A stretch of 64,000 bases of DNA from Alphaproteobacteria bacterium (GTDB taxonomy: Bacteria > Pseudomonadota > Alphaproteobacteria > JBKEAR01): positions 5,750 to 69,749 of the forward strand of contig JBKEBO010000058.1 in NCBI GenBank assembly GCA_047973205.1, given 5' to 3'. This document shows, in pieces, positions 16,965-40,295 of this stretch. A program made the position numbers and the translations under genes. The stretch's first letter is position 1, and each line of letters starts with the position of its first letter. Under the pieces are notes generated by a model. The model saw only the letters and a program-made list of their open reading frames with translations. It ran no database searches and was not told where the DNA came from.

Positions 16965-16971
16965 AGCGGCT

Positions 16972-19091: not shown

Positions 19092-19254
19092 TATTTTAGC
19101 TATTGTAAAAAAGTAACACCCATCATAATAGATAATATATTTATCGATATTTTTTCTGTTTCTTTTTGATTTTTCTCTTTTTTTATGTAAAATATTTTTA
19201 CTCACACAAGGGAGACTTAAAAAAATTAACGATAAGGTTTGGAGAATATTTATT

Positions 19255-20003: not shown

Positions 20004-20102
20004 AATTTGCCTCTTTTAAGGCTACACCTTAGCAATATAAATGGGGCTTTGAGCCTAAAGAGAATATCTTTGTTCCCACTCCCTTAAGCCTTACAACCAA
20101 AA

Positions 20103-20117
20103 TGTAGCTAAATTACA
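20103..20117. promoter_or_regulatory. Degenerate copy of the island palindrome (TGTAG-ctaaa-TTACA)
   Basis: It has one mismatch against TGTAG-N5-CTACA and lies about 290 nt upstream of the SDR/ABC operon. Confidence 0.3.
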
Positions 20118-20312
20118 TAAATAGGATAATTTGACTATAAAAATTTAAAAATACCCCTAATATTTTAAAGAAAAAATCTACTTAAATCATAAAAATAATT
20201 ATTTTTACTAAGTATTAATACCCTCAAAATCCTCAGTAAATCAGGAGTTTTTATAGGTAGAATAGAATCTTATTCAAATTTTTCTATTAAAAGGTTTGCA
20301 AAATATAAAAAA

Positions 20313-20327
20313 TGTAGTTAAACTACA
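20313..20327. promoter_or_regulatory. Candidate operator TGTAG-ttaaa-CTACA, 72 nt upstream of the SDR-SDR-ABC operon
   Basis: This is a perfect 5+5 palindrome. The same TGTAG-N5-CTACA word recurs upstream of three other operons of the island. Confidence 0.45.
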
Positions 20328-20398
20328 AAATATGATAAATTTCTACTTATTAAGATGTTAGAATAAATATCCGCAAAAGTAAAAGAAAGGATGGGGCA

Positions 20399-21172
20399 AT
20401 GTATCTTGAAAAGTTAAGCTTAAAAGGAAAACGTGCGGTTATCACAGGAGCTGCTCGTGGTATTGGGCTTGCAATTTCAGAAGCTTTAGCCGAAGCAGGG
20501 GCTGAGGTTATTTTAACCGATATGCATAAAGAAGCCCTTAAAGAGGCAAAAGATTTACTTGCTCAAAAAGGCTATGAAACACAAACATTTGTGCTTGATG
20601 TTACCAATGTTGACCAAGTGAATAAAGCGGCAGAGCATATCGAAAGCCATATTGGTCCAGTCAATATTTTGGTAAATAATGCAGGAATTGCTATATCAAA
20701 CCATCCTGCAGAAGATATGAGTGATGAGGTTTGGAATAAGGTTATTGATGTTAATCTGAATGGTGTTTTTTGGTGCTGTAGGGCTTTTGGTAAGTCTATG
20801 GTACTAAGGGAGGAGGGGGCGATTGTCAATGTTGGTTCAATGTCAGCCAATATTGTCAATCGTCCACAGGAACAAGCCAATTATAATGCTTCTAAAGCAG
20901 GGGTGCATCATCTCACACGTTCACTTGCAGCCGAATGGGCCTCCAAAGGTGTACGTGTTAATGTGGTTGCTCCTACCTATATTGATACCGAGATGAATGC
21001 CTATGTTTATGAAGATAAAGAAATGTATCGCTATTGGGTGGGAGGAACACCCATGGGGCGTTTAGGGCGTACGGATGAAGTTGCCTCAGTCGTCCATTTT
21101 TTAGTGAGTGATGCAGCAAGCCTTATGACAGGCTCAATTGTCCTTGCTGATGGTGGTTATTGCTGCTGGTAA
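20399..21172 (+). CDS. Short-chain dehydrogenase/reductase (SDR) family oxidoreductase
   Basis: The 257 aa product has a TGAARGIG cofactor motif and a YxxxK active site. It is a paralogue of the SDR at 32607-33404; both end in an unusual GG.CC(W/E) C-terminus. Confidence 0.88.
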   Translation: MYLEKLSLKGKRAVITGAARGIGLAISEALAEAGAEVILTDMHKEALKEAKDLLAQKGYETQTFVLDVTNVDQVNKAAEHIESHIGPVNILVNNAGIAISNHPAEDMSDEVWNKVIDVNLNGVFWCCRAFGKSMVLREEGAIVNVGSMSANIVNRPQEQANYNASKAGVHHLTRSLAAEWASKGVRVNVVAPTYIDTEMNAYVYEDKEMYRYWVGGTPMGRLGRTDEVASVVHFLVSDAASLMTGSIVLADGGYCCW

Positions 21173-21194
21173 GATAAAATTAAGGAGAGTAATT

Positions 21195-21944
21195 GTGCGT
21201 ATTGAAGAGACATTTCCAAATGATTTATTTAAAGGTCAAACAATATTTATATCAGGAGGTTCAAGCGGTATTGGCCAAACAGTTGCCCAAGGCTTTGCTC
21301 ATACAGGAGCAAAAGTGATTGCTACAGGAAGTTCCGCTACTAAAGTCGAAAAAGCCAATCAGGAAAATAATCTAGAAAATATCCAGTATGAGGTTTTAGA
21401 TGTTCGGAATTATGAAGCCGTTAAAGCACGTTTTGCCTCACTTGATGAGCTGCATGTTTTATTTAATTGCCAAGGTGTTGCACGCCCTGAAAGCGAATGG
21501 ACAGAAGAAGAGTTTTTAAATGTAATGGATATTAATTTAAATAGTGCGATGAGGCTTAGTCGTGAGGCCTTCCCTCATCTTAAAAAAACCAAAGGAAGTA
21601 TTGTTAATGTGGCATCAATGCTCAGCTATTTAGCCGATGCAGATGTACCTTCTTATACGGCTTCAAAAACAGGGATTGTTGGGCTTACGAGAGTTTTGGC
21701 TCATAAATATGGCATTGATGGTGTTCGGGTGAATGCTATTGCTCCAGGCTATCATAAAACCAATATGACCAAGCCTTTATGGAGTGTTGAAGAAAGTGCA
21801 GAAAAAATAGCAAACCGCTCGGCTCTTAAACGTTGGGGGACAACAGATGATCTTGTAGGCCCAGTTTTGTTTTTAGCATCACCAGCCGCAAGCTTTGTTA
21901 CAGGTATTACTCTAGCTGTTGATGGAGGATATCATATAGGGTAA
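21195..21944 (+). CDS. SDR-family oxidoreductase
   Basis: The product has an ISGGSSGIG motif. A GTG start with an AAGGAGAG RBS is preferred over the track's 21138 ATG, which overlaps the previous gene by 35 nt. Confidence 0.85.
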   Translation: MRIEETFPNDLFKGQTIFISGGSSGIGQTVAQGFAHTGAKVIATGSSATKVEKANQENNLENIQYEVLDVRNYEAVKARFASLDELHVLFNCQGVARPESEWTEEEFLNVMDINLNSAMRLSREAFPHLKKTKGSIVNVASMLSYLADADVPSYTASKTGIVGLTRVLAHKYGIDGVRVNAIAPGYHKTNMTKPLWSVEESAEKIANRSALKRWGTTDDLVGPVLFLASPAASFVTGITLAVDGGYHIG

Positions 21945-21991
21945 GGCAATAAAGCCTTACCAAAAATTTAAAAATAACATGGAGGTATAAA

Positions 21992-23023
21992 ATGAATAAC
22001 TTTAAAACAAAAATTTTAAGTACATGTATTATTGCAACGGCAATTATAGGTACAACGGCCTATGCAAAAGATAAAGAAATTAGTGCATGTATTATTACCA
22101 AAACAGATGCCAATCCATTTTTTGCAAAAATGCGTGAAGGTGCTGAACAACGTTCAAAAGAGCTTGGTATTAAGCTGAAATCTTTTGCGGGTAAATATGA
22201 TGGCGATAACCAAGCTCAGGTTGATGCGATTGAAACTTGTATTTTGGACGGGGTGGATGGTATTTTGATGTCTCCTAATGACTCAAAAGCCATTGTACCA
22301 AAAGTTAAAGAAGCTCGTGATGCAGGGATTTTATTTATTACTGTTGACTCTCCCTTAGACCCTCTTGATGCAGCCGATGCAACTTTTGGTACAGATAATT
22401 ACAAGGCGGGTGTTCTGATTGGTCAATGGGCAAAAGCAAAAATGGGAGCTGATGCGGCCAAAGCTCGTATTGGATTTTTAGATATCAATGCAAGCCAAGT
22501 AGCGGTGGATGTTCTTCGTGATCAAGGCTTTATGGAAGGTTTTGGTATTGACGTTAAAGATGCAAATTATATTGGTGATGAAGATGATCCTCGTATAATT
22601 GGTCATGCCTATTCTAATGGTGCCGAAGAAGGTGGTTATAAAGCCATGGAAACCATTTTGCAGATGGACCCTAATGTGAATATAATTCATACAATTAACG
22701 AGCCTGCAGCAGCAGGAGCCTACGAAGCATTAAAAGCCGTTGGTAAACAAGATGATGTGATTATTGTTTCGGTTGATGGTGGTTGCCCTGGTGTGCAAAA
22801 TGTTAAGGAAGGTATTATTGGTGCAACATCGCAGCAATATCCATTACGGATGACAATATTGGGCATTGATGCTATTAAAGAATATGCTGAAACAGGCAAA
22901 AAACCTGAGCCAACACCAGGAAAAGACTTCTTTGATACAGGAGTTAAATTGATTACGGATCAACCTGTAGATGGCGTTGATTCCATTGATTCTAAAGAAG
23001 GTGCTAGTCTTTGCTGGGGTTAA
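21992..23023 (+). CDS. Sugar ABC transporter periplasmic substrate-binding protein (type I PBP, ribose/fructose-binding-like)
   Basis: The 343 aa product has a signal peptide and PBP-1 fold conservation. Confidence 0.88.
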
Positions 23024-23128
23024 ACTAAAATGCATAGGAAAGCCTTTAAAAAATAGAGGCTTTCCAATATATTTTCATGAAATATTAATGAGCTTATCCA
23101 TATGAATATGGATATAAGGGAGAGCTTT

Positions 23129-24202
23129 ATGGAAGATAAGAATAACACAAAGCCAGAATATGAAAAAATAGTCACACAAGCTGCAGGAAATATTGCCGCA
23201 TTTGAAGATGAAAAAGACTCACTTGGCAAAAAGTTTTTTAGTCTTTTACATGCCAATCCTGCTTTAGCTCCTTTTTTGGTGCTTTGTACTTCTGTGATTG
23301 TTTTTGGATTGCTGCTTGGCTCAAAATTCTTTTCGCCTTTTGCTCTTACACTTATTTTGCAGCAAGTGGCTATTGTAGGTATTGTGGGTTGTGCTCAATC
23401 TTTGGTGATTTTAACCGCTGGTATCGACTTAAGTGTTGGAGCGATTATGGTTTTAAGCTCGGTAATTATGGGGCAATTTACCTTTCGCTATGGCTTACCT
23501 GTTGAATTGTCAGTTATTTGTGGTTTAGCCTTTGGTACATTAGCAGGAGCAATTAACGGCATTTTGGTGGCTATTGCTAAGCTTCCTCCTTTTATTGTAA
23601 CTTTAGGAAGTTGGCAAGTGCTTCTGGCAGCAAATTTTCTTTACTCCCATAATGAGACAATCAGAGCCCAAGATATCGCTTCTCAAGCTCCTCTTTTACA
23701 TTTTTTTGGTATTAAATTTAAAATGATGGGAGCTGTATTTACTTTAGGCACAATGATGATGTTGGGGCTTGTTTTTTTGTTGGCTTATATATTAAAGCAA
23801 ACGGCATGGGGGCGGCATGTTTATGCGGTGGGTGATGACCCACAAGCAGCTGAACTTGCAGGTATTAATGTGAAGCATCAATTGATTTCCGTTTATGCAT
23901 TATCAGGATTTATTTGTGCTTTAGCAGGTTGGGTTATGGCGGGGCGTATAGGCTCAATCTCGCCAAACTCAGGCCAGTTCACTAATATAGAGAGTGTTAC
24001 AGCTGTTGTGATTGGAGGTATATCACTCTTTGGTGGACGCGGCAATATTGCAGGCATGCTCTTTGGAGCATTAATCGTGGGAGTTTTTTCCTTAGGTTTA
24101 AGGCTTTTAGGCACCGATGCTCAATGGACAAACCTACTTATTGGTGTGTTGATTATTGCTGCAGTGAGTGTTGACCAATGGATAAGAAAGGTATCAGCAT
24201 AA
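23129..24202 (+). CDS. Sugar ABC transporter permease (CUT2/RbsC-like)
   Basis: The product is polytopic with RbsC/FrcC-like conservation. The ATG at 23129 follows an AAGGGAGAG RBS, while the track starts at 23102. Confidence 0.88.
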   Translation: MEDKNNTKPEYEKIVTQAAGNIAAFEDEKDSLGKKFFSLLHANPALAPFLVLCTSVIVFGLLLGSKFFSPFALTLILQQVAIVGIVGCAQSLVILTAGIDLSVGAIMVLSSVIMGQFTFRYGLPVELSVICGLAFGTLAGAINGILVAIAKLPPFIVTLGSWQVLLAANFLYSHNETIRAQDIASQAPLLHFFGIKFKMMGAVFTLGTMMMLGLVFLLAYILKQTAWGRHVYAVGDDPQAAELAGINVKHQLISVYALSGFICALAGWVMAGRIGSISPNSGQFTNIESVTAVVIGGISLFGGRGNIAGMLFGALIVGVFSLGLRLLGTDAQWTNLLIGVLIIAAVSVDQWIRKVSA

Positions 24203-24957
24203 TGTCGACAATTTTATATGCACGAAATTTAGTGAAACGTTATGGCCGTGTCGTTGCTCTTGACCATTGTGATGTAGACTTAAAGCGAGGGGAAATTTTA
24301 GCAATTATTGGTGATAATGGAGCAGGAAAATCTACCTTAATTAAAGCATTGTCAGGAGCAGTTATCCCTGACCAAGGTGAGATTTATCTTGATGATAAAA
24401 AAGTAAAATTCCATAACCCGATAGAGGCTCGCCACGAGGGAATCGAGACAGTTTATCAAACCTTGGCCATGTGTCCAGCCCTTTCTATTGCGGATAATAT
24501 GTTCATGGGGCGAGAGCTTCGTAAGGCGGGCATTTTAGGTAAGGTTTTTCGTCGGTTAGACCGCCAAAAAATGGAGGATATAGCAAGAGAAAAACTTAAT
24601 GAGCTTGGCTTGATGACTATCCAAAATATCAATCAGATGGTCGAAACACTCTCAGGCGGCCAAAGACAAGGCGTTGCGGTAGCTCGTGCAGCAACTTTTG
24701 GCTCTAAGGTAGTGATTTTAGATGAACCAACTGCAGCTCTTGGGGTTAAAGAAAGCCGCCGTGTGCTGGAGCTGATTAACGATGTTCGCTCCCGTGGTAT
24801 ATCCATTATCCTAATTAGCCATAATATGCCCCATGTATTTGAACTCGCTGACCGTATTCATATTCACCGTTTAGGCAAAAGGTTATGTGTGGTTGATCCC
24901 AAACAGGTTTCTATGTCTGATGCAGTCGGCCTTATGACAGGAGCTATTGAGCCTTGA
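24202..24957 (+). CDS. Sugar ABC transporter ATP-binding protein (single ABC domain, FrcA-like)
   Basis: The product has a GDNGAGKST Walker A, an LSGGQRQ signature and Walker B. Its ATG overlaps the permease stop (TAATG). Confidence 0.88.
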   Translation: MSTILYARNLVKRYGRVVALDHCDVDLKRGEILAIIGDNGAGKSTLIKALSGAVIPDQGEIYLDDKKVKFHNPIEARHEGIETVYQTLAMCPALSIADNMFMGRELRKAGILGKVFRRLDRQKMEDIAREKLNELGLMTIQNINQMVETLSGGQRQGVAVARAATFGSKVVILDEPTAALGVKESRRVLELINDVRSRGISIILISHNMPHVFELADRIHIHRLGKRLCVVDPKQVSMSDAVGLMTGAIEP

Positions 24958-25097
24958 CTCTCTTGCAGCCTCTTAATAGAGGCAAAGCCCCATTAATATT
25001 GCTAAGATTTGGTTGCAAAAGAGTAAGAGGAATACTCTTATTTATCTAGGTTTTTATGATAGTTACATCATTTTTTTATATTTTTTTTCACTTACCC

Positions 25098-25126
25098 CTT
25101 GCTCTTGGTAAAAAATCACCTTAAAT
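25098..25126 (+). promoter_or_regulatory. Possible sigma-32 (RpoH)-type promoter of groESL: CTTG-N17-CCTTAAAT
   Basis: It resembles the alphaproteobacterial RpoH consensus CTTG-N17-CYTATNT. No CIRCE (TTAGCACTC-N9-GAGTGCTAA) is seen upstream of groES. Confidence 0.3.
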
Positions 25127-25221
25127 TCTTTGTTAATGGAAAAGTATCTACTGCTTCTCTTAAGGGTAGATGCTTTGATTTTGTTAGAAAATAAAAGAAA
25201 AAATGAACGGAGTTATAAAAA

Positions 25222-25509
25222 ATGGCATTACGTCCACTTTATGATCGAGTTTTGGTTAAACGCATAGAAGCTGAGCAAAAAACAGCTGGCGGCATTATTT
25301 TACCAGATTCGGCTCAAGAAAAACCACAAGAAGGTGAAATTATTGCTGCAGGTCAAGGCGTTAGAGGTGATAATGGTGAATTTGTTGCTTTAGACGTTAA
25401 AGTTGGCGATCGTGTTTTATTTGCCAAATGGGGCGGCACTGAAGTTAAGATTGACGGCCAAGACCTCATTATCATGAAAGAATCTGATATTTTAGGCGTG
25501 CTTTCGTAA
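25222..25509 (+). CDS. groES: Co-chaperonin GroES
   Basis: The 95 aa product has canonical GroES sequence ([11 protein letters not shown]…[23 protein letters not shown]). Confidence 0.95.
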
Positions 25510-25572
25510 ATAAAGGCGTCTTCAACTAAGATAAATTAGCTTTAAAAATCAAAGTATAGATAAGGAATTTAA

Positions 25573-27210
<1,638 letters not shown>

Positions 27211-27244
27211 GCTTTCCCACACATATAACCTTATACATAAAAAA

Positions 27245-27271
27245 CCTCTCCTATTTTGGAGAGGTTTTTTT
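27245..27271 (+). terminator. Rho-independent terminator of groESL
   Basis: The stem is cctctcc-tatttt-ggagagg, followed by 7 T's. Confidence 0.8.
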
Positions 27272-27289
27272 GTGGTTCTTATAACCTCA

Positions 27290-27500
27290 ATTTGGCAAAT
27301 TCTGGCAAGATTTGTCCATAAATATCCATTTTTGTCCATAAATTTTCAAACCACAACCAAAATAAGCCAAAATAAGCCAACCTAAAAGCCCTCCACCCTT
27401 GCCTAGGAGGATGGATAAAGATGGACAAAGATGGATGAGAGTGGATAAACTTTGCCAAAATTTGGATAAAAATGGATATTTATGGACAAGTTCGGACATA
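27290..27500. repeat. Intergenic repetitive element, copy 2. It holds three 10-bp-phased TTTGTCCATA/AATATCCATT words, two tandem aataagccaa units, and at least seven 10-bp-phased ATGGA(T/C)AAAG-type words in the opposite orientation.
   Basis: Read directly from the sequence. TCCAT starts at 27315/27325/27335. ATGGA or GTGGA starts at 27411/27421/27431/27441/27472/27482. Outer ttggcaaat…tttgccaaaa words form an imperfect palindrome of about 190 bp. Confidence 0.5.
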
Positions 27501-27534
27501 AAAAAAGCCCCTAAAATATTTTAAAAGGGGCTCT
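27499..27534 (-). terminator. Rho-independent terminator of aspA (minus strand)
   Basis: The stem is agcccct/aggggct with a 13-nt loop, followed on the minus strand by a T7 run. Confidence 0.7.
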
Positions 27535-27551
27535 TTTGGATTATCTTATTC

Positions 27552-28985: not shown

Positions 28986-29200
28986 GTTGCATCCCTTATT
29001 TAAAAAAATTGATATAAAAACATTATTTCATCTCACAATAAAGTCAAACAAATTCCGCTAGAGTTACATTATTCTTTATAGAAAATATCTCTTTAAAGTT
29101 TATGGATTAAAAACATAATTCACCAATCTGTAGTTTTATGAAAAATATACACTAAATATTTTAGAAAAATTATAGATATTATTTGTTTTTCCCTTTTTTA

Positions 29201-29215
29201 TGTAGTATAACTACA
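29201..29215. promoter_or_regulatory. Candidate operator TGTAG-tataa-CTACA in the aspA/cupin-isomerase divergent region
   Basis: This is a perfect palindrome of the same family as 20313, 29224, 37737 and 37761. Confidence 0.45.
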
Positions 29216-29223
29216 ATATAGCT

Positions 29224-29238
29224 TGTAGTTTTGCTACA
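29224..29238. promoter_or_regulatory. Candidate operator TGTAG-ttttg-CTACA, 46 nt upstream of the cupin-isomerase start
   Basis: This is the second copy, 8 bp after the first, so the two sites are 23 bp apart centre to centre. Confidence 0.45.
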
Positions 29239-29283
29239 TCGCAATTGACATATTTTAAAAATATGCGGAGGAAAGAGGATAAT

Positions 29284-29910
29284 ATGATTTTTGAACCAAC
29301 AGCTCATCTCATAAACCCAGATACTGGCTCGCTTGATGGCCATACAGGAAGCTATATCAAAACACTCTTGCAACTTGAGGGCATTTATTCTGATACACAA
29401 GCCTTTGATGAAGCTTGCAAAACCCATGGAGATACAGTGGTTTATCGTGTGGAGGATGTTCGCCCTGATACGGATCATGGTAACTTAATTTTTGGTACAA
29501 CCTTTATGGAAGCAGGTGATATTGGTGGCGAATTTTATTTAACTCGAGGCCATATTCATGGCTTTGGTAATCGCCCCGAGACTTACTATGGCGAGTCAGG
29601 CCGTGGAGTTATGCTACTGGAATCTCCCGAAGGTGAGAGTCGTATTTTAGAAATAGCTCCTAAGGTGATGGTTTTTGTACCTCCCTATTGGATACATCGC
29701 TCTGTTAATATTGGCAATGAGCCTTTAGTGATGAGCTTTTGCTACCCAGCAGATTCAGGGCAAGATTATGATGTAATTGCCCAAACTTGTGGTATGGCAA
29801 AACGCATTATGAAGGATGGTATGGGCTGGAAAGCCATTGATAATATTCGCTATCAGCCCCGAACTGCGGAACAAATTAAGAGAATTTATGCCACAGGAGA
29901 CGAGAGATGA
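29284..29910 (+). CDS. Cupin-type sugar-phosphate isomerase (archaeal cPGI / glucose-6-phosphate-isomerase family)
   Basis: The product carries T.GH.H….E.YY….G.G.MLL and FVPPYWIHRSVNIG blocks that match Pyrococcus-type cupin PGIs. The ATG at 29284 follows a GGAGGAAAGAGG RBS, and the track's 29245 start lacks an RBS. Confidence 0.7.
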   Translation: MIFEPTAHLINPDTGSLDGHTGSYIKTLLQLEGIYSDTQAFDEACKTHGDTVVYRVEDVRPDTDHGNLIFGTTFMEAGDIGGEFYLTRGHIHGFGNRPETYYGESGRGVMLLESPEGESRILEIAPKVMVFVPPYWIHRSVNIGNEPLVMSFCYPADSGQDYDVIAQTCGMAKRIMKDGMGWKAIDNIRYQPRTAEQIKRIYATGDER

Positions 29911-30860
29911 ATTATCAACCTGCTGACAAACGCACATTCTATTTTATAGGGGTAACCACGGCACAATCATCTATTATGAAGGTTTTTCCTGCATGGGCTG
30001 AGTATTTAGAACTGGGTGATGTTACCATGAAGGGCATGGATTTTGTTCCCCATGATAAGCCTGAACATTACCGTAAGGCGGTAGATTTTCTCAAATCTGA
30101 CCCCCTCTCTTTGGGAGCATTAGTAACAACTCATAAGCTTGATTTATTTGATGCCTGTAAGGATATGTTCGATGAAGTTCGCCCTCTTGCTCAGCTTATG
30201 GCCGAAACAAGTAGCCTTTCTAAGGAGGGCGATAAGTTCGTCTGTGATGCTAAAGACCCCATAACCTCAGGGCTTTCCATGGATGGCTTTTTACCCAAAA
30301 ATCATTTTACCCAAACACAAGCCGAATTATTTTGTATGGGAGCTGGTGGTTCAACCATTGCCATAACATGGCATTTGCTCCAAAGCATAAGGGGAGCTAA
30401 CAGACCCTCTCGTATTATAGTTTCTAACCGCTCTCAACCACGGCTTGACCACCTAAAAGCTATTCATAAACAAATGGCTGTAGATATTCCCATTGAGTAT
30501 CATTTGGCTCCAAAGCCTGAAGATAATGATGCTCTTTTAGCCAATATGAAGCCCCATAGCTTGGTTGTTAATGCAACAGGCCTTGGCAAGGATGCCCCTG
30601 GCTCTCCTTTATCCGATAAAGCAAGCTTTCCTAAAAATTCTATTATTTGGGAGCTAAACTATCGAGGTAATCTTATCTTTTTAGACCAAGCTTACCGTCA
30701 AGAAAAAGTAAAAAACCTTCAGATAGAAGATGGTTGGACATATTTTATCTATGGCTGGACAAGGGTTATTGCAGAGGTTTTTCATATTGATATACCAACA
30801 AGCGGACCAAAATTTGATGAGATTGCTCGTATTGCAGCTGAAGTAACGAGGCAAAAATGA
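29907..30860 (+). CDS. Shikimate/quinate-dehydrogenase-family NAD(P)-dependent dehydrogenase
   Basis: The 317 aa product has an N-terminal SDH substrate domain pattern and a MGAGGS Rossmann motif. It overlaps its neighbours by 4 nt, indicating an operon. Confidence 0.7.
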   Translation: MNYQPADKRTFYFIGVTTAQSSIMKVFPAWAEYLELGDVTMKGMDFVPHDKPEHYRKAVDFLKSDPLSLGALVTTHKLDLFDACKDMFDEVRPLAQLMAETSSLSKEGDKFVCDAKDPITSGLSMDGFLPKNHFTQTQAELFCMGAGGSTIAITWHLLQSIRGANRPSRIIVSNRSQPRLDHLKAIHKQMAVDIPIEYHLAPKPEDNDALLANMKPHSLVVNATGLGKDAPGSPLSDKASFPKNSIIWELNYRGNLIFLDQAYRQEKVKNLQIEDGWTYFIYGWTRVIAEVFHIDIPTSGPKFDEIARIAAEVTRQK

Positions 30861-31780
30861 GTAAAAATATTTTAGTTACCCCTCGCTCTCTTTCTCAAGG
30901 AGAACATGTTGAGTTTGAGCCTCTTATTCAGGCAGGGTTTAAACTTATCACCCCCACACCAGGGCTTATGCCAAGTGAGGCTGATTTATTGGATGTTATT
31001 GGTGATTGTGTGGGCTGGCTAGCTGGCGTAGAACCCATAAGCGATGCGGTTATTCATAAGGCTCAGTATTTAAAGGTCATTAGCCGCAATGGTACAGGTA
31101 TCGATAATCTTCCTATGGAGCTATTAAAAGAGCATAACATTGCCATTGAACGAGCCATTGGTACAAATGCCCGTGGTGTAGCAGAGCTTGCTTTGGCCTT
31201 TATCGTCTCGGGGCTTCGCTATATTATCCCTACCCATGAAGGTATCCGAAATGGTGAGTGGCCACGGATGCGAGGTCGTGAAATTTGCGATAGTACTATT
31301 GGCATTATTGGCCTTGGCTCTATTGGTAAAATCGTTGGTGAGCTTTGTTTAGCCTTAGGGGCTAAAGTTATTGGCTACGACCCTTATGTTCACCATGTGA
31401 TTAACCATGCAAGCTTTGAGCAGGTGGATTTTATGGATGCGATTAAATGCTCGGATATTATCAGTCTGCATTGCCCCATGGCCGAAGATGGTAGGCCGAT
31501 TATCACAAAAGAGGTTTTAGCTATGGCTCGCCCTGAGCTTATTATTGTCAATACCGCACGGGCTGGACTTGTTGACGAGGAGGCTTTACTGGAGGCCTTA
31601 AATAAGCGTAGTGTAAGCAATTATATGGCGGATGTTTTTCATGAAGAGCCTCCCAAATCTAGTTTACTCACGCAAAATCCTTTTGTTGCCATGACAAGCC
31701 ATATTGGTGGTTTTACAGACTCAAGCGTCTCTCGCTCCACCAAGGTTGCTGTTGCTAATATATTAAAGCATTTCTCATGA
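30857..31780 (+). CDS. D-isomer-specific 2-hydroxyacid dehydrogenase family protein
   Basis: The 307 aa product has a GIIGLGSIG Rossmann motif, a catalytic His in the HIGGFT context, and a RAGLVDEEAL block. Confidence 0.85.
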   Translation: MSKNILVTPRSLSQGEHVEFEPLIQAGFKLITPTPGLMPSEADLLDVIGDCVGWLAGVEPISDAVIHKAQYLKVISRNGTGIDNLPMELLKEHNIAIERAIGTNARGVAELALAFIVSGLRYIIPTHEGIRNGEWPRMRGREICDSTIGIIGLGSIGKIVGELCLALGAKVIGYDPYVHHVINHASFEQVDFMDAIKCSDIISLHCPMAEDGRPIITKEVLAMARPELIIVNTARAGLVDEEALLEALNKRSVSNYMADVFHEEPPKSSLLTQNPFVAMTSHIGGFTDSSVSRSTKVAVANILKHFS

Positions 31781-32592
31781 AGATAATCCATCAACAAGGT
31801 TGGCTCAAACAAGGGCAAAAAGGAATGGTTTGGCTTGGCCAAGCAGGCTTTTGGATAAATACAGGGCGGCATAAAATACTTATCGACCCTTATCTTTCGG
31901 ATAGTTTAGCCAAAAAATATGAGGGTGAAATTTATGACCATCAACGCATGGTGGATATTCCTATTGGCCCCACAGATTTACCTAAACCTGACCTTGTGCT
32001 TATTAGTCATGCTCATACGGATCATATGGATGGAGAAACACTTGCCCCTTTAGCTCAAAAATATCCTAACTTACCTTTTTTTGTTCCCCAAGCCTCCATG
32101 GATATTGCCAAAGAACGTATTGGTGTAGATACTTACCTGATAGGGCTAAATGCTGATCAGACTTACAATTTTGATAACTATTTGAATATCCGTACATTTC
32201 CTGCAGCCCATGAGAGCTTAGAAACAGACGATTATGGTCATCATCTTTTTTTAGGCTATGGCATTGAAGATGCAGGCTTAAGGATTTATCACTCAGGTGA
32301 TTGTATTCCTTATGATGGGCTTAAAGAGCGTGTGGATGCTTTTGCTGCTCATATTGCTCTTATGGCAACTAATGGCCGTGATGAGCAACGTTTAAAGGCA
32401 AATATTGCAGGCAATTTTACTTTAGAAGAAGCCTATGAGCTTTCACAAAATGCCCAGATATTTATTCCTCACCATTGGGGAATGTTTGCCTTTAACACTA
32501 TTGCTAAAGAAAAAATTATGGCCTTTGCCCAAAAAAACACCACCCCTCCAATTATCTTACCTCAACATGGCAACTCTTTAGTTATAGAGTAG
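31777..32592 (+). CDS. MBL-fold metallo-hydrolase
   Basis: The 271 aa product has an HAHTDH metal-binding motif. It is the last gene of the cupin operon. Confidence 0.75.
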   Translation: MKIIHQQGWLKQGQKGMVWLGQAGFWINTGRHKILIDPYLSDSLAKKYEGEIYDHQRMVDIPIGPTDLPKPDLVLISHAHTDHMDGETLAPLAQKYPNLPFFVPQASMDIAKERIGVDTYLIGLNADQTYNFDNYLNIRTFPAAHESLETDDYGHHLFLGYGIEDAGLRIYHSGDCIPYDGLKERVDAFAAHIALMATNGRDEQRLKANIAGNFTLEEAYELSQNAQIFIPHHWGMFAFNTIAKEKIMAFAQKNTTPPIILPQHGNSLVIE

Positions 32593-32606
32593 CAAAAACC
32601 AAAAAA

Positions 32607-33404
32607 TTATTCACAACAAGCTCCTCCTTCAGTTAGAACAACTGAGCCTGTCATAAAGCCTGAGGCTTCACTTGCTAAAAAGTGAACAGCCGAAGCAATT
32701 TCTCCTTCTTGATTACATTGCCCTGTTGTTTTGCTGCCAACCCAGTAGCGATATTTTTCTTCACGGCCACAAACATAGGTATCCATTTCCGTATCCACAT
32801 AAGTGGGGGCAACCACATTTACTCGTACGCCTCGCCAGCCCCATTCATCCGATAAAGCCTGCGACAAATGTTGTACAGCCGCCTTAGCTGCACGAAAACT
32901 CACATGTTTTTCAACACAACTTCCCATATTTGTTGGTGGAGAATTAATATTAATAATAGAGCCAATGCCGCGTCGTAACATTTTTTTACCAAATGCCTGA
33001 CAGCACCAAAAAACCCCATTAAGATTAACATTCATAACGTTAAGCCATGTTTCGCTACTCATGACTTCAGCAGGTTGATCGATAATTTCCATATTGGTAT
33101 TATTAACCAAAATATCCACAGGACCTATCTCATCTTCAATATGCCTTGCAACTTGGCTCGTTGCTTCCATATCCCCAACATCCAATGCTAAAGTATGAAC
33201 CTCAAAGCCTTTTTCTATCAATGGAGCTTGTGCCGTTTTAAGTAATGTCTCGTCAATATCTATCAGAATAACTTTAGCCCCTGCTTTAGCTAAAGCTTCT
33301 GAAATACTCAGCCCAACCCCTTGAGCAGCCCCTGTAATCACCGCTCGCTTTCCTTTTAGGCTTAACTTTTCACCATGCATGGCCACCCCTTTCTTTTGTG
33401 ACAT
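32607..33404 (-). CDS. SDR-family oxidoreductase (paralogue of 20399-21172)
   Basis: The product shares KLSLKGKRAVITGAA…NLNGVFWCC…VRVNVVAPTY…YRYWVG…GG.CC with the first SDR at roughly 50% identity. The true start is probably the Met at 33380. Confidence 0.85.
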   Translation of the reverse strand: MSQKKGVAMHGEKLSLKGKRAVITGAAQGVGLSISEALAKAGAKVILIDIDETLLKTAQAPLIEKGFEVHTLALDVGDMEATSQVARHIEDEIGPVDILVNNTNMEIIDQPAEVMSSETWLNVMNVNLNGVFWCCQAFGKKMLRRGIGSIININSPPTNMGSCVEKHVSFRAAKAAVQHLSQALSDEWGWRGVRVNVVAPTYVDTEMDTYVCGREEKYRYWVGSKTTGQCNQEGEIASAVHFLASEASGFMTGSVVLTEGGACCE

Positions 33405-33716
33405 ATGCTAAGAATATCTTTAACTTATGGTATAATATTTCCTATTATTATCCTTAATATTTAATGATAATAATACTTATTATATAGTTATACATTTTTT
33501 TGATGCAAATTTTTAATTGGTAAAAAAAATTTAATCACCCAAATTAAATTACATAAAATTATAAAAATTTCGGCAAATTGCATACAAGTATAGAAGTGCA
33601 TATAAAGACTATATTAAATAACAAATTTTAATTCTTTACCCTATTTTATGCCATTCTTTGAGTATTTTTAGAACTATTATCTATTTTTTTTATAATTTTA
33701 GATGATTCGTGAATAG

Positions 33717-34595
33717 CTAATCGATTTTTTCATCATCATTTAAACCATAACTACGAACATCTGCAATATATTGTTTCATTGCATCAAGGCGTTCCCGCTG
33801 CTCTATGGGGCGACGAAGAACCGTATAAGTCGATAATATATCGATAATCACTAAGGCGGCCATGCGGGAAATTGTTGGTGTGTATTTATCTGTATTATCT
33901 AAAGATTCAACAATCAGGCTAATATCTGAATGTTCTGTAAGTGGGCTTTTGCTTCCTGTAAGGCCAATGACCTTTGCACCATGGCTGCGAGCCACATCGG
34001 CCGCTCGGATAATCTCTTGGGTTTTTCCTGAATCCGAAATTGCTATAACCACATCGCCTTTTTGCATCATACTCACATTAATCAACATTTGGTGAGTATC
34101 GCTTATGGATTGGCAAGGAATGCCAAAAAGCGGAAATTTTTGTTGAGCATCTTGAGCAACAATGGAAGATGCTCCTAAGCCAAAAAAGTACAAAGATTTT
34201 GCTTCTAATATACAATCAACCGCATCAGCGAGAGCTTTTCTGTCTAGCTTTGTTCGTACCCAATCAAGACTTGTAAGGTTAAAGTCGAAGATTTTGTTAA
34301 TAACTTCATTAAAATCATCTTTATCCGATATAGCCGCATGGGATGTTGAAAGACCAAAAGCAAGGGAGCGAGCGAGCTTAATCTTCATATCTTGAAAGCC
34401 CTCACAACCAATAGAGTTACAAAATCGAATAACTGTTGGCTCACTTACATCTGAGAGTTTAGCGAGCTTAGCAAGCTTCATCTGTGGTACTGATTGAGGA
34501 TTTTCTAATATCTTTTCAGCAACCTTACGATCTGAGCGTCGCAATTTATCTAGTGAGCGTTTAATCTCTTCGATTAAATTGACTGATTCAAGCAT
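33717..34595 (-). CDS. RpiR/MurR-family transcriptional regulator (N-terminal HTH_6 plus C-terminal SIS sugar-phosphate-binding domain)
   Basis: The 292 aa product has an HTH (LAKLAKLSDVSEPTVIRFC) and a SIS domain (GLGASSIVAQD…AISDSGKTQE). It is the last gene of the kinase operon. Confidence 0.88.
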   Translation of the reverse strand: MLESVNLIEEIKRSLDKLRRSDRKVAEKILENPQSVPQMKLAKLAKLSDVSEPTVIRFCNSIGCEGFQDMKIKLARSLAFGLSTSHAAISDKDDFNEVINKIFDFNLTSLDWVRTKLDRKALADAVDCILEAKSLYFFGLGASSIVAQDAQQKFPLFGIPCQSISDTHQMLINVSMMQKGDVVIAISDSGKTQEIIRAADVARSHGAKVIGLTGSKSPLTEHSDISLIVESLDNTDKYTPTISRMAALVIIDILSTYTVLRRPIEQRERLDAMKQYIADVRSYGLNDDEKID

Positions 34596-34612
34596 CTCTT
34601 ATCCTTACATCT

Positions 34613-35209
34613 CTATTGTGCAATATAGCCAACCCAACCAAGGCCATTATGCATTCCATTATGACCTGCCGCCGTAAAAGCTTCAATCATTTTATTATTT
34701 GCCGTAAAAAAGCAAACATTATTATCACCATCAAGCTGATACTCTGCTATTATACGAGCTTCTAAATGAGCAAAATCTTTCTGAGCTTTATCAAGATTTT
34801 GAGTACGAACTCCTAAATGATCAATTCCTTTGGTTGTTGTTGAACCATCTATTTGGGAGCAAAATTCAATGGGGACATTATCAGGACCTTTAAAAAAGAT
34901 AAAGCGAACACCCTCTTGCCAAAATTCTTTAATACTTGTAATGCCATCTGCAGTGTAATTTGCATCAAGCTTTAAGCCTTGCTTTTGTTTTTTTTGAGCA
35001 AAGCTATCTAAATCAATCACCTTAAAGGCAATATGGTCGAAGTGATAAGGTGTTATATTGTGATTGTTTTTCCATATATCTTGCTGCACAAGTAAAATCA
35101 CATCTTCACCATATGCAAGATGGTTCTTGCCAACATCTGCAAATGGGAGTTTTTTTGTAAAAAATGCCTTAGCATCTTCAATAGAAGTCACAGATAGTAC
35201 GGGTATCAT
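34613..35209 (-). CDS. VOC-superfamily (glyoxalase/dioxygenase-fold) protein with two tandem βαβββ modules
   Basis: The 198 aa product has two HF.H/HLG…R-type VOC halves. Its function cannot be told from the sequence. Confidence 0.55.
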   Translation of the reverse strand: MIPVLSVTSIEDAKAFFTKKLPFADVGKNHLAYGEDVILLVQQDIWKNNHNITPYHFDHIAFKVIDLDSFAQKKQKQGLKLDANYTADGITSIKEFWQEGVRFIFFKGPDNVPIEFCSQIDGSTTTKGIDHLGVRTQNLDKAQKDFAHLEARIIAEYQLDGDNNVCFFTANNKMIEAFTAAGHNGMHNGLGWVGYIAQ

Positions 35210-35247
35210 CGCTTTAAACCTTTTCTTCTTATGAATATTAAAATATT

Positions 35248-35901
35248 TTAGCCTTTTAAAAAATTCTCAATATAATCAACAGGTGACTGATTATAGGGAA
35301 TAAAATCAGCTCCTTTGGGTATTAGACTTTCATCTTGCACCTCATGTTGCGGATGATAAAGCACCTGCATTTTAGCATTAATGCCTGCCTGAGCCCCAGG
35401 GAGGCTATCTTCCACGACAAGGCAATCTTTTGGTTCTACTTTGAGATGCTTTGCTCCTAACAAATAGCTATCAGGCTCTGGCTTACCATGGGTAACATCG
35501 TAACGGCAAATATAATTAGGTATCACCTCATCGAGCTTGGTTACCTGCATGCAGCATTCAACTTCTTCTTTAGTTGAGTTAGAAACAACGGCCATTGGTA
35601 CTTTACGTTTAGCAAGCTCCGTAGCTAATGATGCTAAAGGCTCTCTACGGATAACCTCTTGAGCATGTTGTTCATAATAGTACCATTTTTTTGCTTTCCA
35701 TACCTCAAATTCCATATTCGTATTGGCAAGTTTTTGAAAGCGGCTATGTACATTTTCTAAGGTTGTTCCTGTAAGTGAAAGATGAAACTCCTCAGGAACG
35801 ATTATGCCGATTTCAGCGGCGATATTATCAAGGGCAGCATGGTGAGCAGGCTCACTGTCAATCAATGTTCCGTCCATATCCCATAAGATAGCTTTTGTCA
35901 T
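35248..35901 (-). CDS. HAD-superfamily hydrolase, β-phosphoglucomutase/sugar-phosphatase subfamily
   Basis: The 217 aa product has the ILWDMDGTLIDSE motif I and the EDS..G motif IV. Confidence 0.8.
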   Translation of the reverse strand: MTKAILWDMDGTLIDSEPAHHAALDNIAAEIGIIVPEEFHLSLTGTTLENVHSRFQKLANTNMEFEVWKAKKWYYYEQHAQEVIRREPLASLATELAKRKVPMAVVSNSTKEEVECCMQVTKLDEVIPNYICRYDVTHGKPEPDSYLLGAKHLKVEPKDCLVVEDSLPGAQAGINAKMQVLYHPQHEVQDESLIPKGADFIPYNQSPVDYIENFLKG

Positions 35902-37403
35902 GTAAGTTTGTCCAAATCGTGATAAAATTGTTGTGAGTGTTTGTAAAGTCGCTCATAAATAGGCATCATGCGATTATATCGCTCAACCCATTGAGGAGAC
36001 GGCATAATTTCTTCTGAAAAACGTACCATAGATTGGGCTGCATCTTCAACATTATTCTTTGCTCCTGTACTTGTTGCCATAAGCATTGCTGCTCCAACAA
36101 TGCCACATTCAAGCTCTTGGGGTACTCTATAAGCCACATTATACATACTCGCTTTAATCTCAAGCCATAGGTGATTTTTTGCCCCGCCACTGGCTGCAAT
36201 AATTGCTTCAGGCCGTCCATCTTTATCCACCTCATCCAAAACACGACGAACCGAAAAAGCTACCCCTTCTAAAACGGCTCGATGCAAATCTGCCATATTA
36301 TGTTCCGCTGTTAGGCCAAAAAATTGAGCCCGTGAGTTTTTGTAATCCCCAAAACGTTCTCCTGATAAATAAGGCAAAAAGAACAAACCATTAGCTCCCA
36401 CTTCTGAACGGTGAGCATCTTCGGTTATTTCCGCGTAACTTCGTTGATTATCATGAAAAGCTCGCCTTGCCCAACGTGGTGCATCTCCTCCTGCATCCAA
36501 AAGTGTCATGGCTCCCCATACACCATTAGCCGAAAGTACATTAGAGACTTGCGGTTTTAAGATAGGGCCATCATGCATCAATGTAACAATAGTAGATGTA
36601 CCTGTAACATCTGAGCCCATTCCTTGCTTAATCACACCAGAGCCAATTAATGCCATAGGATAATCCCCCGCCCCCACAAGTACAGGAATATCAGCCGAAA
36701 GCCCTATTTTTGCAGCAACTTTAGCGTCAAGCCCACCCAATATGTCTTCAGGAGCATGTAAATCAGGAAGCAAGTCTCTTGAGACCCCTGTAATCTCGCA
36801 CAATTCATCAGACCATTGACGGGTTTGCCAATCCATCAAAAAGCTTAAACTGGCTTCTGTATAATCTTGAGCTCGTTTACCTGTTAGCTTAAAGTTAATC
36901 CAATCTTTCGGCATTAAAAGAGTAGTTGAGCGAGCCAAAGCCTCAGGTTGATTTTCAGCAATCCATGCAACTTTAAGAGCGGGCCATGCAGGCGATGGTG
37001 TATTGGCTGTAAGTTCTAAAATTTTTTTTGTACTCAAAGACTTTGTAAGCTCTTCGACTTGCTTAATATTACGTTTATCATTCCAAAGAGGAACAGCTTC
37101 TAATGCTGGTTTACCACTATCATCAATTAAAACAGAACCATGCATTTGCCCACAACAACATATGGCTGCAATACGATGATGAGCGTTTTCAACCTTAGCC
37201 AAAACATCTTTCATAGTTGTTAATGTACCATGCCACCAATCTTCAGGACGTTGTTCCGACCATCCATATCTAGGAACTATCTGCTCATGTTCCTTATGGC
37301 TAAAAGCTAAGATATGCCCAGCTCCATCCACTATAGCCGAACGAAGCCCGCCTGTACCCACATCAATCGCTAAATATAAATCCCTAACCTGCTGCTTTTG
37401 CAT
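35898..37403 (-). CDS. FGGY-family carbohydrate kinase (xylulokinase/glycerol-kinase-like)
   Basis: The 501 aa product has LAIDVGTGGLRSAIVD at the N-terminus and FGGY_N/C conservation. It is the first gene of the kinase-HAD-VOC-RpiR operon. Confidence 0.88.
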   Translation of the reverse strand: MQKQQVRDLYLAIDVGTGGLRSAIVDGAGHILAFSHKEHEQIVPRYGWSEQRPEDWWHGTLTTMKDVLAKVENAHHRIAAICCCGQMHGSVLIDDSGKPALEAVPLWNDKRNIKQVEELTKSLSTKKILELTANTPSPAWPALKVAWIAENQPEALARSTTLLMPKDWINFKLTGKRAQDYTEASLSFLMDWQTRQWSDELCEITGVSRDLLPDLHAPEDILGGLDAKVAAKIGLSADIPVLVGAGDYPMALIGSGVIKQGMGSDVTGTSTIVTLMHDGPILKPQVSNVLSANGVWGAMTLLDAGGDAPRWARRAFHDNQRSYAEITEDAHRSEVGANGLFFLPYLSGERFGDYKNSRAQFFGLTAEHNMADLHRAVLEGVAFSVRRVLDEVDKDGRPEAIIAASGGAKNHLWLEIKASMYNVAYRVPQELECGIVGAAMLMATSTGAKNNVEDAAQSMVRFSEEIMPSPQWVERYNRMMPIYERLYKHSQQFYHDLDKLT

Positions 37404-37505
37404 TTTAAGCCCACCATTATTGCCATTTTTATCTAATTTTTTTATATCTTATCAATTATTTATATTACATCAAAACAACTTATTGTCTAGTATATTTTTA
37501 AAAAA

Positions 37506-37520
37506 TATAGTATAACTACA
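37506..37520. promoter_or_regulatory. Near-copy of the island palindrome (TaTAG-tataa-CTACA), about 100 nt upstream of the FGGY kinase operon
   Basis: It has one mismatch in the left half-site. Confidence 0.3.
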
Positions 37521-37736
37521 AATAATAAACTATAGTAAATTATTGATTTATAATGTTTTTTTATAAAAATATTATAAATAACTTTTGATATACAGCTATT
37601 TTCATAGAAGATTATTTTTATTTTTTATAGATTTCTCATAATAAATAATTGTATAAGATATTGATATAAATTAGCTTTATGGAAAAATATCTGTCTGTAT
37701 TTATATAAATCCAACAACTTGACAAAACCCCAAAAA

Positions 37737-37751
37737 TGTAGTTATGCTACA
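37737..37751. promoter_or_regulatory. Candidate operator TGTAG-ttatg-CTACA, copy 1 upstream of the second ABC operon
   Basis: It is part of a perfect 18-bp direct repeat tgtagttatgctacaaat ×2. It is preceded by TTGACA at 37719-37724, so it overlaps a likely -10 region. Confidence 0.5.
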
Positions 37752-37760
37752 AATGCACAT

Positions 37761-37775
37761 TGTAGTTATGCTACA
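37761..37775. promoter_or_regulatory. Candidate operator TGTAG-ttatg-CTACA, copy 2
   Basis: It is identical to copy 1 and lies 24 bp downstream, 34 nt before the SBP start. Confidence 0.5.
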
Positions 37776-38774: not shown

Positions 38775-38799
38775 GCTTTACCTTACAATGAGATAAAAT

Positions 38800-40278: not shown

Positions 40279-40295
40279 ATAAAGGAGAGGTAACT

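Follow-up and report, generated by a model that had tools for sequence, protein, structure and literature searches.

A 15-bp palindrome ahead of four operons suggests a local RpiR-type sugar regulon in an alphaproteobacterium

Gene organization of the locus

The window, a 64-kb stretch of alphaproteobacterial DNA, contains four operons preceded by copies of a 15-bp palindrome (Table 1). Together they encode an FGGY kinase, a HAD protein, a cupin PGI-like isomerase, a shikimate-dehydrogenase-family enzyme, a 2-hydroxyacid dehydrogenase and a lactonase-like hydrolase of the metallo-beta-lactamase (MBL) fold, accompanied by transport and short-chain dehydrogenase (SDR) genes. The FGGY, HAD and VOC genes are treated as one transcription unit with rpiR, since the genes overlap or are separated by gaps of at most 38 bp. 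Between 16972 and 46689, the genes scanned against Pfam include no regulator besides the RpiR protein, which is also the only RpiR-like open reading frame in the 64 kb, in line with the original prediction of a sole local regulator. The sugar island described there is not contiguous, as groES/groEL and aspA separate operon 1 from the remainder. Searches of the literature, NCBIfam and PDB sequences named no substrate for the cluster.

Table 1 Genes, predicted promoter elements and candidate operators in the window
Feature	Position	Strand	Remarks
Distal, weaker operator TGTAGCTAAATTACA	20103..20117	.	One mismatch; 210 bp upstream of proximal site
-35-like hexamer TTTGCA (predicted)	20295..20300	+	12 nt upstream of 20313 operator
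Proximal operator TGTAGTTAAACTACA	20313..20327	.	Perfect match; PWM 25.6 bits; 72 bp upstream of SDR1 ATG (20399)
Operon 1 (SDR1, SDR2, CUT2 sugar ABC transporter ABC1)	20399..24957	+	Pfam; SDR1 20399-21172, SDR2 to 21944; ABC1: SBP 21992-23023, permease 23102-24202, ATPase 24178-24957
Weak -35-like TTGTTT (predicted)	29183..29188	+	12 nt upstream of 29201 operator
Operator TGTAGTATAACTACA, first of pair	29201..29215	.	Perfect match; PWM 24.0 bits
Operator TGTAGTTTTGCTACA, second of pair	29224..29238	.	Perfect match; 46 bp upstream of cupin ATG (29284)
Operon 2 (four genes)	29284..32592	+	Pfam, NCBIfam; in order: cupin-type sugar-phosphate isomerase (PF06560), 317-aa shikimate-dehydrogenase-family protein, D-2-hydroxyacid dehydrogenase, metallo-beta-lactamase-fold hydrolase (UlaG-like)
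RpiR/MurR-family regulator, last gene of operon 3, proposed operator binder	33717..34595	-	Pfam HTH_6 + SIS
Rest of operon 3 (FGGY, HAD, VOC)	34613..37403	-	Domain/profile searches including NCBIfam; FGGY sugar kinase 35898-37403, HAD phosphatase/mutase 35248-35901, VOC/glyoxalase-fold protein 34613-35209
Operator, reads TGTAGTTATACTATA on - strand	37506..37520	-	One mismatch; PWM 21.8 bits; 103 bp upstream of FGGY ATG
-35 hexamer TTGACA of SBP2 promoter (predicted)	37719..37724	+	TTGACA-18-TATGCT, 10 of 12
Operator TGTAGTTATGCTACA, first of pair	37737..37751	.	Perfect match; overlaps SBP2 promoter -10 region
Operator TGTAGTTATGCTACA, second of pair	37761..37775	.	Perfect match; 34 bp upstream of SBP2 ATG (37809)
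Operon 4 (second CUT2 ABC transporter: SBP2, double ATPase, permease)	37809..41258	+	Pfam

Distribution of the palindrome in the window

The full consensus of the motif is TGTAGT-W3-RCTACA, a 15-bp palindrome of 6-3-6 architecture. Its core, TGTAG-N5-CTACA, occurs perfectly five times in the window against 0.03 expected from the shuffled sequence, and none of 100 shuffles reached five. When the count is restricted to intergenic DNA (AT-rich, 9.4 kb in total), the seven sites compare with 0.27 expected and a maximum of three in 500 shuffles. All seven are confined to 3 of the 37 intergenic segments, ahead of the four operons. A position weight matrix (PWM) trained on 19 sites scores them at 17–25.6 bits and everything else in the window at no more than 13.4 bits; the 20103 site reaches 18.5 bits although it lies outside the training set.

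The motif scan recovered the predicted perfect copies (20313, 29201, 29224, 37737 and 37761) as well as the one-mismatch copies at 20103 and 37506. That the 64 kb hold no other copy is true of perfect matches, whereas a third one-mismatch match, at 8543, had been overlooked. As about 1.15 such matches are expected in the window by chance, it is at chance level. Its PWM score is under 8 bits, the T/A positions of the extended motif are not matched and it falls within a TRAP DctP gene, and we discarded it as intragenic noise. Every copy had further been assigned to a promoter region. All seven are indeed intergenic and ahead of the four operons, but aspA does not qualify as a target: the operon 2 sites lie at least 216 bp from its start and 46–83 bp from that of the cupin gene, and aspA adjoins sites in no other locus, which makes it a mere neighbour. 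The 313-bp spacer upstream of the SDR gene at 32607-33404 carries no site. Long-spacer sites of the 28-bp type (TGTAGT-N10-24-ACTACA) are absent from the window.

The sites of the two close pairs are 23 and 24 bp apart, centre to centre, as first described, and the 18-bp direct repeat TGTAGTTATGCTACAAAT can be read directly in the sequence at 37737 and 37761. At three promoters the first site begins 12 nt after a predicted -35-like hexamer, so that it would cover the -10 region, an arrangement that fits a repressor. This is clearest ahead of operon 4, where the predicted -10 element TATGCT (37743-37748) of the TTGACA promoter falls inside the 37737 site, as originally proposed. TTTGCA at 20295 has the same geometry as TTGACA at 37719, and the weak TTGTTT at 29183 may be a promoter element as well.

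Conservation in related gene clusters

Orthologous loci were gathered by finding contigs that encode related proteins; a search of genome contigs with the regulator yielded no more than two RpiR relatives, both distant and irrelevant. Eleven orthologous alphaproteobacterial clusters keep the motif beside the same genes, with regulators 50–82% identical and GC contents of 36–64%. Core genes with the motif in the cluster spacers are found in loci L003, L005, L009, L011, L013, L093, L137, L138, L139 and L140, each with an orthologous rpiR except the L093 fragment. The operon 2 genes form the conserved core of every related locus, and in related clusters the motif always lies 12–50 bp upstream of the cupin-isomerase gene. 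A further site is located 24 bp upstream of rpiR itself in L009, another in the rpiR/TRAP spacer of L138, and the L140 genome also holds a paralogous RpiR cluster with similar sites. The motif is absent from the Burkholderia cluster L136. With this exception, the picture is that by which comparative genomics recognizes a regulon, a shared motif upstream of orthologous operons alongside an orthologous regulator.

In alignments of close relatives, the operators and the -35-like hexamer stand out as invariant blocks amid diverged spacers. The 20313 operator is such a block in L003 and L005, and TTTGCAAA is invariant across the window and both these loci. The 29201 site aligns with sites in L003, L005 and L093, and a TTTGT block is kept at the cupin promoter of the window, L003 and L005. 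TTGACA at 37719 aligns with TTTGC(A/G/C) in L003 and L005, while the variant right half ACTATA of the 37506 site recurs in L003 (6370) and L005 (7552). The distal 20103 site is only partly conserved, as L003 has an analogous site (10337, 181 bp from its proximal site) and L005 has no counterpart.

In L003 an SDR pair immediately follows rpiR, and it shares 82% identity with SDR1 and 74% with SDR2. This pair adjoins rpiR in both L003 and L005; in the window it lies 13 kb away and retains the same operator, which indicates that gene and operator move together. Inverted repeats flank the SDR-ABC operon, which is a displaced cassette. The operon 4 transporter is 76–83% identical to the one beside FGGY in L003 and L005, and cluster transporters are interchangeable, being of either ABC or TRAP type. 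An Eda-like aldolase is present in the clusters of most related genomes and absent from the window. From marine Alphaproteobacteria to Burkholderia, the 317-aa core enzyme retains about 70% identity.

A relaxed paired-motif scan of metagenome contigs was uninformative about specificity: among the matches listed, most were GTAGTAGTACTAC-type low-complexity DNA and unrelated repeats, and L093 was the only true cluster match. A search on the literal half-site sequences gave primer noise only.

The regulator and known RpiR-family systems

An N-terminal HTH_6 domain (PF01418, residues 6–79, 74 bits) and a C-terminal SIS domain (PF01380, residues 129–254, 75 bits), both above their gathering scores, place the regulator in the RpiR/MurR family. 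Its best NCBIfam match is HexR (NF008451), at 260.2 bits below the curated cut-off of 296, so it is not assigned to the HexR subfamily. The protein as a whole is no nearer to P. aeruginosa RccR (PDB 8JU9; 39% identity) than to E. coli HexR (38%). Its DNA-binding domain shares 51% identity with that of RccR, and the recognition helix reads SEPTVIRFC in the window regulator, SEPTIVRFC in RccR and SEPTVNRFC in HexR.

Pseudomonas RccR recognizes a 15-bp operator, TGTAGT-N3-ACTACA (probe ATCTGTAGTAAAACTACAAG), as established by ChIP-seq, footprinting, SPR and EMSA; binding is abolished by half-site mutations, tolerates spacer substitutions and is released by the effector KDPG (PMC5489143, PMC11014249). 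The half-sites and the 3-bp spacer are identical to those of the window operator. The HexR-type architecture suggested originally was thus a good lead, although the closest match is the RccR operator. RccR (P. fluorescens and P. aeruginosa PA5438) shares with the window system the HTH_6 and SIS domains, two operator copies in one promoter (aceEF) and, as we suppose for the window, repression relieved by a phosphosugar in the SIS pocket. In contrast to the local sugar cluster, with its transport and catabolic genes, RccR globally regulates pyruvate dehydrogenase, the glyoxylate shunt and gluconeogenesis (aceEF, aceA, glcB, pckA, pntAA, gap) and has a second, 28-bp binding mode strengthened by KDPG.

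The equivalents of RccR R53 and of the phosphate-binding residues S139, S183, S185 and T231 are kept in the window regulator. Since the phosphate contacts of the pocket are retained, a phosphosugar effector is likely. In the KDPG-pocket alignment S188 is replaced by T, H164 and K270 are kept and an R aligns with R277; two contacts to the KDPG carboxylate are changed throughout the clade (H148 to Q, R152 to L). KDPG itself would therefore be a doubtful effector, judging from these residues. R56, needed for DNA binding by RccR, is N or T in the clade and N in the window regulator.

HexR (E. coli YebK, Pseudomonas, Shewanella) resembles the window system in its palindromic operator of the TTGT-N7-8-ACAA or TGTA...TACA type (consensus from PMC5489143) and in being a repressor released by a phosphosugar, as we propose for the window regulator. 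Differences lie in half-site position 5 (G in the window, A in HexR), in the recognition helix (I in place of the HexR N) and in the targets, since none of the HexR-controlled genes zwf, edd, eda, glk and gap comes after a window site. RpiR/AlsR, MurR and Vibrio NanR (PDB 4IVN) offer a parallel as pathway-specific regulators encoded within catabolic or transport clusters, sensing a phosphorylated intermediate through the SIS domain as the window regulator may do; their similarity to it is much lower (E-values 1e-25 to 1e-11), and their operators and substrates are different.

Proposed regulation and alternative explanations

From these comparisons we infer, with a probability of roughly 0.8, that all seven sites serve as operators for the RpiR/HexR-like protein encoded at 33717-34595. 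The recurrence of the motif beside the same genes and an orthologous rpiR in 11 other clusters supports the predicted control of all four operons by this protein. The regulator's HTH_6 domain, at the N-terminus, would contact TGTAGT-W3-RCTACA, with a dimer probably bound at each site and a tetramer possibly spanning paired sites. Cooperative binding of dimers, raised in the original prediction, is plausible given that RccR and MurR are tetramers, which fits the paired operators. With the first operator over the -10 region and the second 23–24 bp downstream, binding would block RNA polymerase. The single operator predicted ahead of FGGY-HAD-VOC-rpiR implies negative autoregulation. The repressor would be released when its SIS domain binds a phosphorylated sugar, for which the FGGY kinase product or a phosphorylated compound further along the pathway is the likeliest candidate. 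Release would then induce uptake through the two ABC systems, SDR oxidation and phosphorylation, as well as the subsequent steps of the cupin isomerase and of the dehydrogenase and lactonase-like enzymes.

Because RccR, and apparently also the paralogous RpiR cluster of L140, uses this class of motif, an unseen paralogue could bind the sites too. It is nevertheless improbable that a different HexR/RccR-like protein, such as a global carbon regulator, binds them alone or additionally while the local RpiR recognizes something else. RccR does recognize exactly the window operator sequence, similar matches lie near the clusters of both RpiR paralogues in L140, and paired sites of the same sequence occur beside unrelated genes in other metagenomic contigs (L109). 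Against this, the motif and a local rpiR occur together in every alphaproteobacterial cluster examined across 36–64% GC, the additional sites in L009 and L138 are putatively autoregulatory, and the aligned spacers hold no other conserved palindrome.

Some RpiR-family proteins act as activators. RccR changes targets with its ligand, and a conserved TAAGAT, a possible -10 element, follows the FGGY operator at a distance of about 50 nt, which would place this operator in an upstream position. An activator or a dual regulator of the RccR kind is still an unlikely role for the local RpiR, given the conserved geometry over the -10 at the other three promoters, the presence of a second site further downstream, and the lack of long-spacer sites in the window. 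By far the least probable reading takes the palindromes as RNA hairpins or repetitive extragenic elements. Each can fold into a 6-bp hairpin (-4.3 to -4.6 kcal/mol) and a pair reaches -13.7 kcal/mol, but the individual hairpins are weak and lack a U-tract, and the region from 17 to 46 kb matches no Rfam family. Over more than 30 sites it is the sequence of the stem that is conserved, variants are one-sided and break pairing with no compensatory changes, and the sites precede or overlap predicted promoters. We rejected this reading on the weak folds and the lack of covariation.

Discussion

Binding and repression by the local RpiR would make this a fairly ordinary local regulon, with an operator type already known from Pseudomonas RccR and no new kind of mechanism. 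More tentatively, and with less than even odds, the regulon may mark a widespread, still uncharacterised phosphosugar catabolic pathway in which the operator code has stayed the same in Alpha- and Gammaproteobacteria while the effector pocket was retuned to a new ligand. The regulon provides a testable handle on a conserved cluster found in many marine and soil Proteobacteria, and the operator delimits which genes belong together, including the transporter–dehydrogenase cassette moved 13 kb away. It would also carry the recognition sequence defined for RccR over to a distant branch of HexR-like regulators that is pathway-specific, which is useful for studying the separate evolution of DNA specificity and effector specificity.

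Operator sites and the transcription units behind them

The window (GC 39%) carries five perfect copies of the palindrome TGTAG-N5-CTACA, all at the positions originally predicted; shuffles of the window give an expectation of 0.03 perfect copies, and five were reached in 0 of 100. The one-mismatch copies predicted at 20103 and 37506 were found again, and the spacings of 23 and 24 bp within the paired sites, together with the 18-bp direct repeat, are read directly off the sequence. The claim that no copy lies elsewhere in the 64 kb holds for perfect copies, but it overlooked a third one-mismatch copy at 8543, with 1.15 such copies expected by chance. As this copy lies inside the TRAP dctP gene, lacks the extended positions and is of a number that fits chance, it was discarded as noise. 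The surrounding TRAP transporter (DctP, DctQ, DctM) is adjoined by an AraC-family regulator. When the test was repeated on intergenic DNA alone, an AT-rich 9.4 kb (GC 32%), seven sites were seen against 0.27 expected, confined to 3 of the 37 spacers. Chance as the origin of the sites is thus ruled out by the shuffle statistics. The fuller consensus, TGTAGT-W3-RCTACA, is longer than the pattern first described. With a symmetrised position weight matrix (PWM) of 19 sites, the seven window sites score 17-25.6 bits, and everything else in the window scores at most 13.4 bits.

Annotation with Pfam and NCBIfam places four transcription units downstream of the sites. Because groES/groEL and aspA intervene after the first unit, these do not form the one contiguous sugar island that had been proposed, and aspA, listed among the regulon promoters, is not a target. 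Downstream of rpiR, a 313-bp AT-rich spacer (33405-33716), in which the PWM finds no operator, is followed by a third SDR gene. Its product shares 56% identity with the SDR1 orthologues of the two closest loci from other genomes (L003 and L005), and the gene may lie outside the regulon or be transcribed by read-through from rpiR.

Coordinates of sites, predicted promoter elements and genes in the window
Feature	Position	Strand	Basis or remark
Perfect operators	20313, 29201, 29224, 37737, 37761		TGTAG-N5-CTACA
One-mismatch copies	20103, 37506, 8543		8543 rejected
-35-like hexamer, SDR1 promoter	20295		TTTGCA
-35-like hexamer, cupin promoter	29183		TTGTTT
-35-like hexamer, SBP2 promoter	37719		TTGACA
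AraC-family regulator and TRAP transporter	7063-11152
SDR1-SDR2 and CUT2 ABC transporter	20399-24957	+	Pfam/NCBIfam
groES/groEL	25222-27210		between first unit and other three
aspA	27552-28985		between first unit and other three
Cupin PGI-like isomerase, 317-aa shikimate-dehydrogenase-family protein, D-2-hydroxyacid dehydrogenase, MBL-fold hydrolase	29284-32592	+	Pfam/NCBIfam
317-aa protein	29907-30860
Third SDR	32607-33404
FGGY kinase, HAD, VOC, RpiR	37403-33717	-	Pfam/NCBIfam
Second CUT2 ABC transporter	37809-41258	+	Pfam/NCBIfam
Inverted-repeat arms	20011-20051, 24983-25023		41 nt, 80% complementary

Conservation in related clusters

L003 and L005 contain the same genes, with regulators 82% and 80% identical, and the motif recurs in both at the four places where the window has it: as a pair upstream of the SBP gene, as a pair or a single copy upstream of the cupin gene, as a single copy upstream of SDR1 and, ahead of the FGGY gene, as the variant operator TGTAGTWAWACTATA, whose deviation is identical in all three loci. 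In spacer alignments of the three, the operators and the -35-like hexamer form invariant blocks amid diverged DNA. More distant clusters, with regulators 50-66% identical and GC contents of 52-64% (L009, L011, L013/L014 from Rhizobium, L137 from Kaistia, L138, L139 from Ahrensia marina and L140 from Aliiroseovarius), all retain motif matches in their spacers. In every case, 12-50 bp separate the proximal site from the cupin gene downstream of it, and L009 has an additional site 24 bp upstream of rpiR. A fragment picked up by the motif alone (L093) proved to be another instance of the cluster. The Burkholderia cluster L136 possesses the genes and an RpiR protein and is devoid of TGTAGT sites; its rpiR-side/cupin spacer contains the palindrome GTTTGT-TTT-ACAAAC (2851-2865), which has the same 6-3-6 architecture and may be a diverged operator.

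Across L009, L011, L138, L139 and L140, the catabolic core is constant and the transporter type differs between genomes (CUT2 ABC, CUT1 ABC of the SBP_bac_1/MalK type, and TRAP in L138), each swapped transporter gene still lying behind motif sites. L140 also contains a second cluster (13674-20264; Aldedh-FGGY-HAD-RpiR-RpiA with a CUT2 ABC transporter) with motif matches at 14790 (20.5 bits), 14963 and 20311, and the operator class seems to be common to the paralogous RpiR regulators of this genome.

The regulator and its likeness to RccR and HexR

The window encodes a single RpiR-like ORF, the product of which is the sole regulator among the Pfam-scanned genes (16972-46689). Among proteins of solved structure, this regulator is closest to P. 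aeruginosa RccR (8JU9, E = 7e-57), with 39% identity overall and 51% in the DNA-binding domain, compared to 38% and 46% for E. coli HexR. RccR binds a pseudo-palindrome with the half-sites TGTAGT/ACTACA; the 15-bp form (probe ATCTGTAGTAAAACTACAAG), present in two copies upstream of aceE, is its high-affinity site. Binding is abolished by half-site substitutions and impaired by a 5-bp spacer insertion, spacer substitutions are tolerated, and the protein is released by KDPG (PMC5489143, PMC11014249). By their sequence, the window sites therefore belong to an operator class that experiments have defined for the HexR-like branch of RpiR proteins. The HexR-type operator named in the original prediction was right as to the branch, but the nearest known system is RccR, not HexR proper.

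The recognition helix (SEPTVIRFC) resembles that of RccR (SEPTIVRFC) and differs from that of HexR (SEPTVNRFC), a difference that possibly sets G versus A at half-site position 5. R53 of RccR is conserved in the window regulator, whereas R56 is replaced by N/T in its clade. In the SIS pocket, the phosphate-binding Ser/Thr, H164, K270 and the arginine aligned with R277 are kept, whereas H148 and R152, which contact the KDPG carboxylate in RccR, are Q and L throughout the clade. The effector would be a phosphosugar, but a different one from KDPG, and is probably the compound that the FGGY kinase produces or an intermediate formed after it.

Several metagenomic contigs of ~62% GC (L109 2801-2838; also L024, L074, L079, L084) carry TGTAGTTTTACTACA-N10-TGTAGTTTTGCTACA directly ahead of a gene of the PEP-mutase/isocitrate-lyase superfamily, and probably represent an RccR/HexR-like regulon in another taxon.

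Promoter layout and mode of control

At the SBP2, SDR1 and cupin promoters, exactly 12 nt separate the end of the -35-like hexamer from the first operator, a geometry conserved in L003 and L005. Assuming a 17-18-nt spacer, the -10 hexamer of these predicted promoters falls within the operator; the overlap proposed for the 37737 site and its TTGACA promoter, as for a repressor, is thus predicted at three promoters. An operator over the -10 would correspond to the classical layout for repression by occlusion, and the second operator of each pair would lie over the likely transcription start. As RccR and MurR are tetramers, a single tetramer could plausibly bridge two operators 23-27 bp apart. 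The FGGY-HAD-VOC-rpiR operon carries its own operator, implying autoregulation. Long-spacer (28-bp type) RccR sites do not occur in the window, so simple ligand-released repression is expected and not the dual switch of RccR.

Activation is a possible alternative to repression, mainly at the FGGY promoter, where the location of the operator relative to the transcription start is ambiguous. The palindromes are unlikely to act as RNA hairpins or repeat elements: predicted hairpins have little stability (-4.3 to -4.6 kcal/mol), Rfam gives no match, and the stems keep their sequence and show no compensatory changes. Similar sites at two paralogous RpiR clusters in one genome (L140) lend some weight to binding by a HexR/RccR-like paralogue encoded elsewhere, but the motif is consistently linked to the local regulator, which favours the local protein and makes binding by such a paralogue less probable. 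On sequence grounds, the prediction of four operons as a candidate regulon of the local RpiR protein appears essentially right; the protein would be a HexR/RccR-like repressor specific to one pathway, with a 6-3-6 operator that is conserved.

A displaced SDR1-SDR2 cassette

In L003 and L005, rpiR is followed directly by SDR1 and SDR2, which in the window are 13 kb away from it and joined to a different ABC transporter. The displaced pair retains the operator and the -35 block seen in those loci; the operator has moved together with the gene under its control. An inverted repeat, with 4931 nt between its arms, encloses the SDR1-SDR2-ABC1 operon and both its operators. Its 23-nt core, AAAGCCCCATTWATATTGCTAAG, occurs in the window only at the two arms and is absent from all 140 loci compared, and no transposase is encoded between the arms. 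The repeat looks like a scar left beside groES when a cassette was inserted or translocated. In L003, the orthologous cluster is bordered by IS-type transposase genes (64-1142; HTH_Tnp_1, rve), which hints at a mobile or rearranging region.

A putative catabolic route and its significance

With low confidence, we infer a route in which a polyol or ketose is taken up, oxidised by the SDRs and phosphorylated by the FGGY kinase. The cupin enzyme, a relative of archaeal cupin PGIs (E = 1e-40), would then carry out an aldose-ketose isomerisation, to be followed by oxidation and lactone hydrolysis and, in most of the related clusters, by cleavage through an Eda-like aldolase. An Eda/KDPG-aldolase-family gene (PF01081) lies between the cupin and 317-aa genes in most related clusters (L003 15101-15745; L005 14772-15419). 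In the window (29284-30860), these two genes overlap by 4 bp with the aldolase gene missing between them, and tblastn found no copy of it anywhere in the 64 kb. The 317-aa protein, named 'shikimate dehydrogenase family protein' in sequence sources, has no Pfam match and no PDB relative by sequence. It is unusually conserved (~70% identity from the window to Burkholderia and Caballeronia), and of the 8000 candidates scored in its search only one was not significant. A literature search found no description of this cluster. What gives the finding its value is a pathway that is uncharacterised yet conserved in many genomes, together with an RccR recognition sequence that a distant clade has retained despite a different effector pocket.
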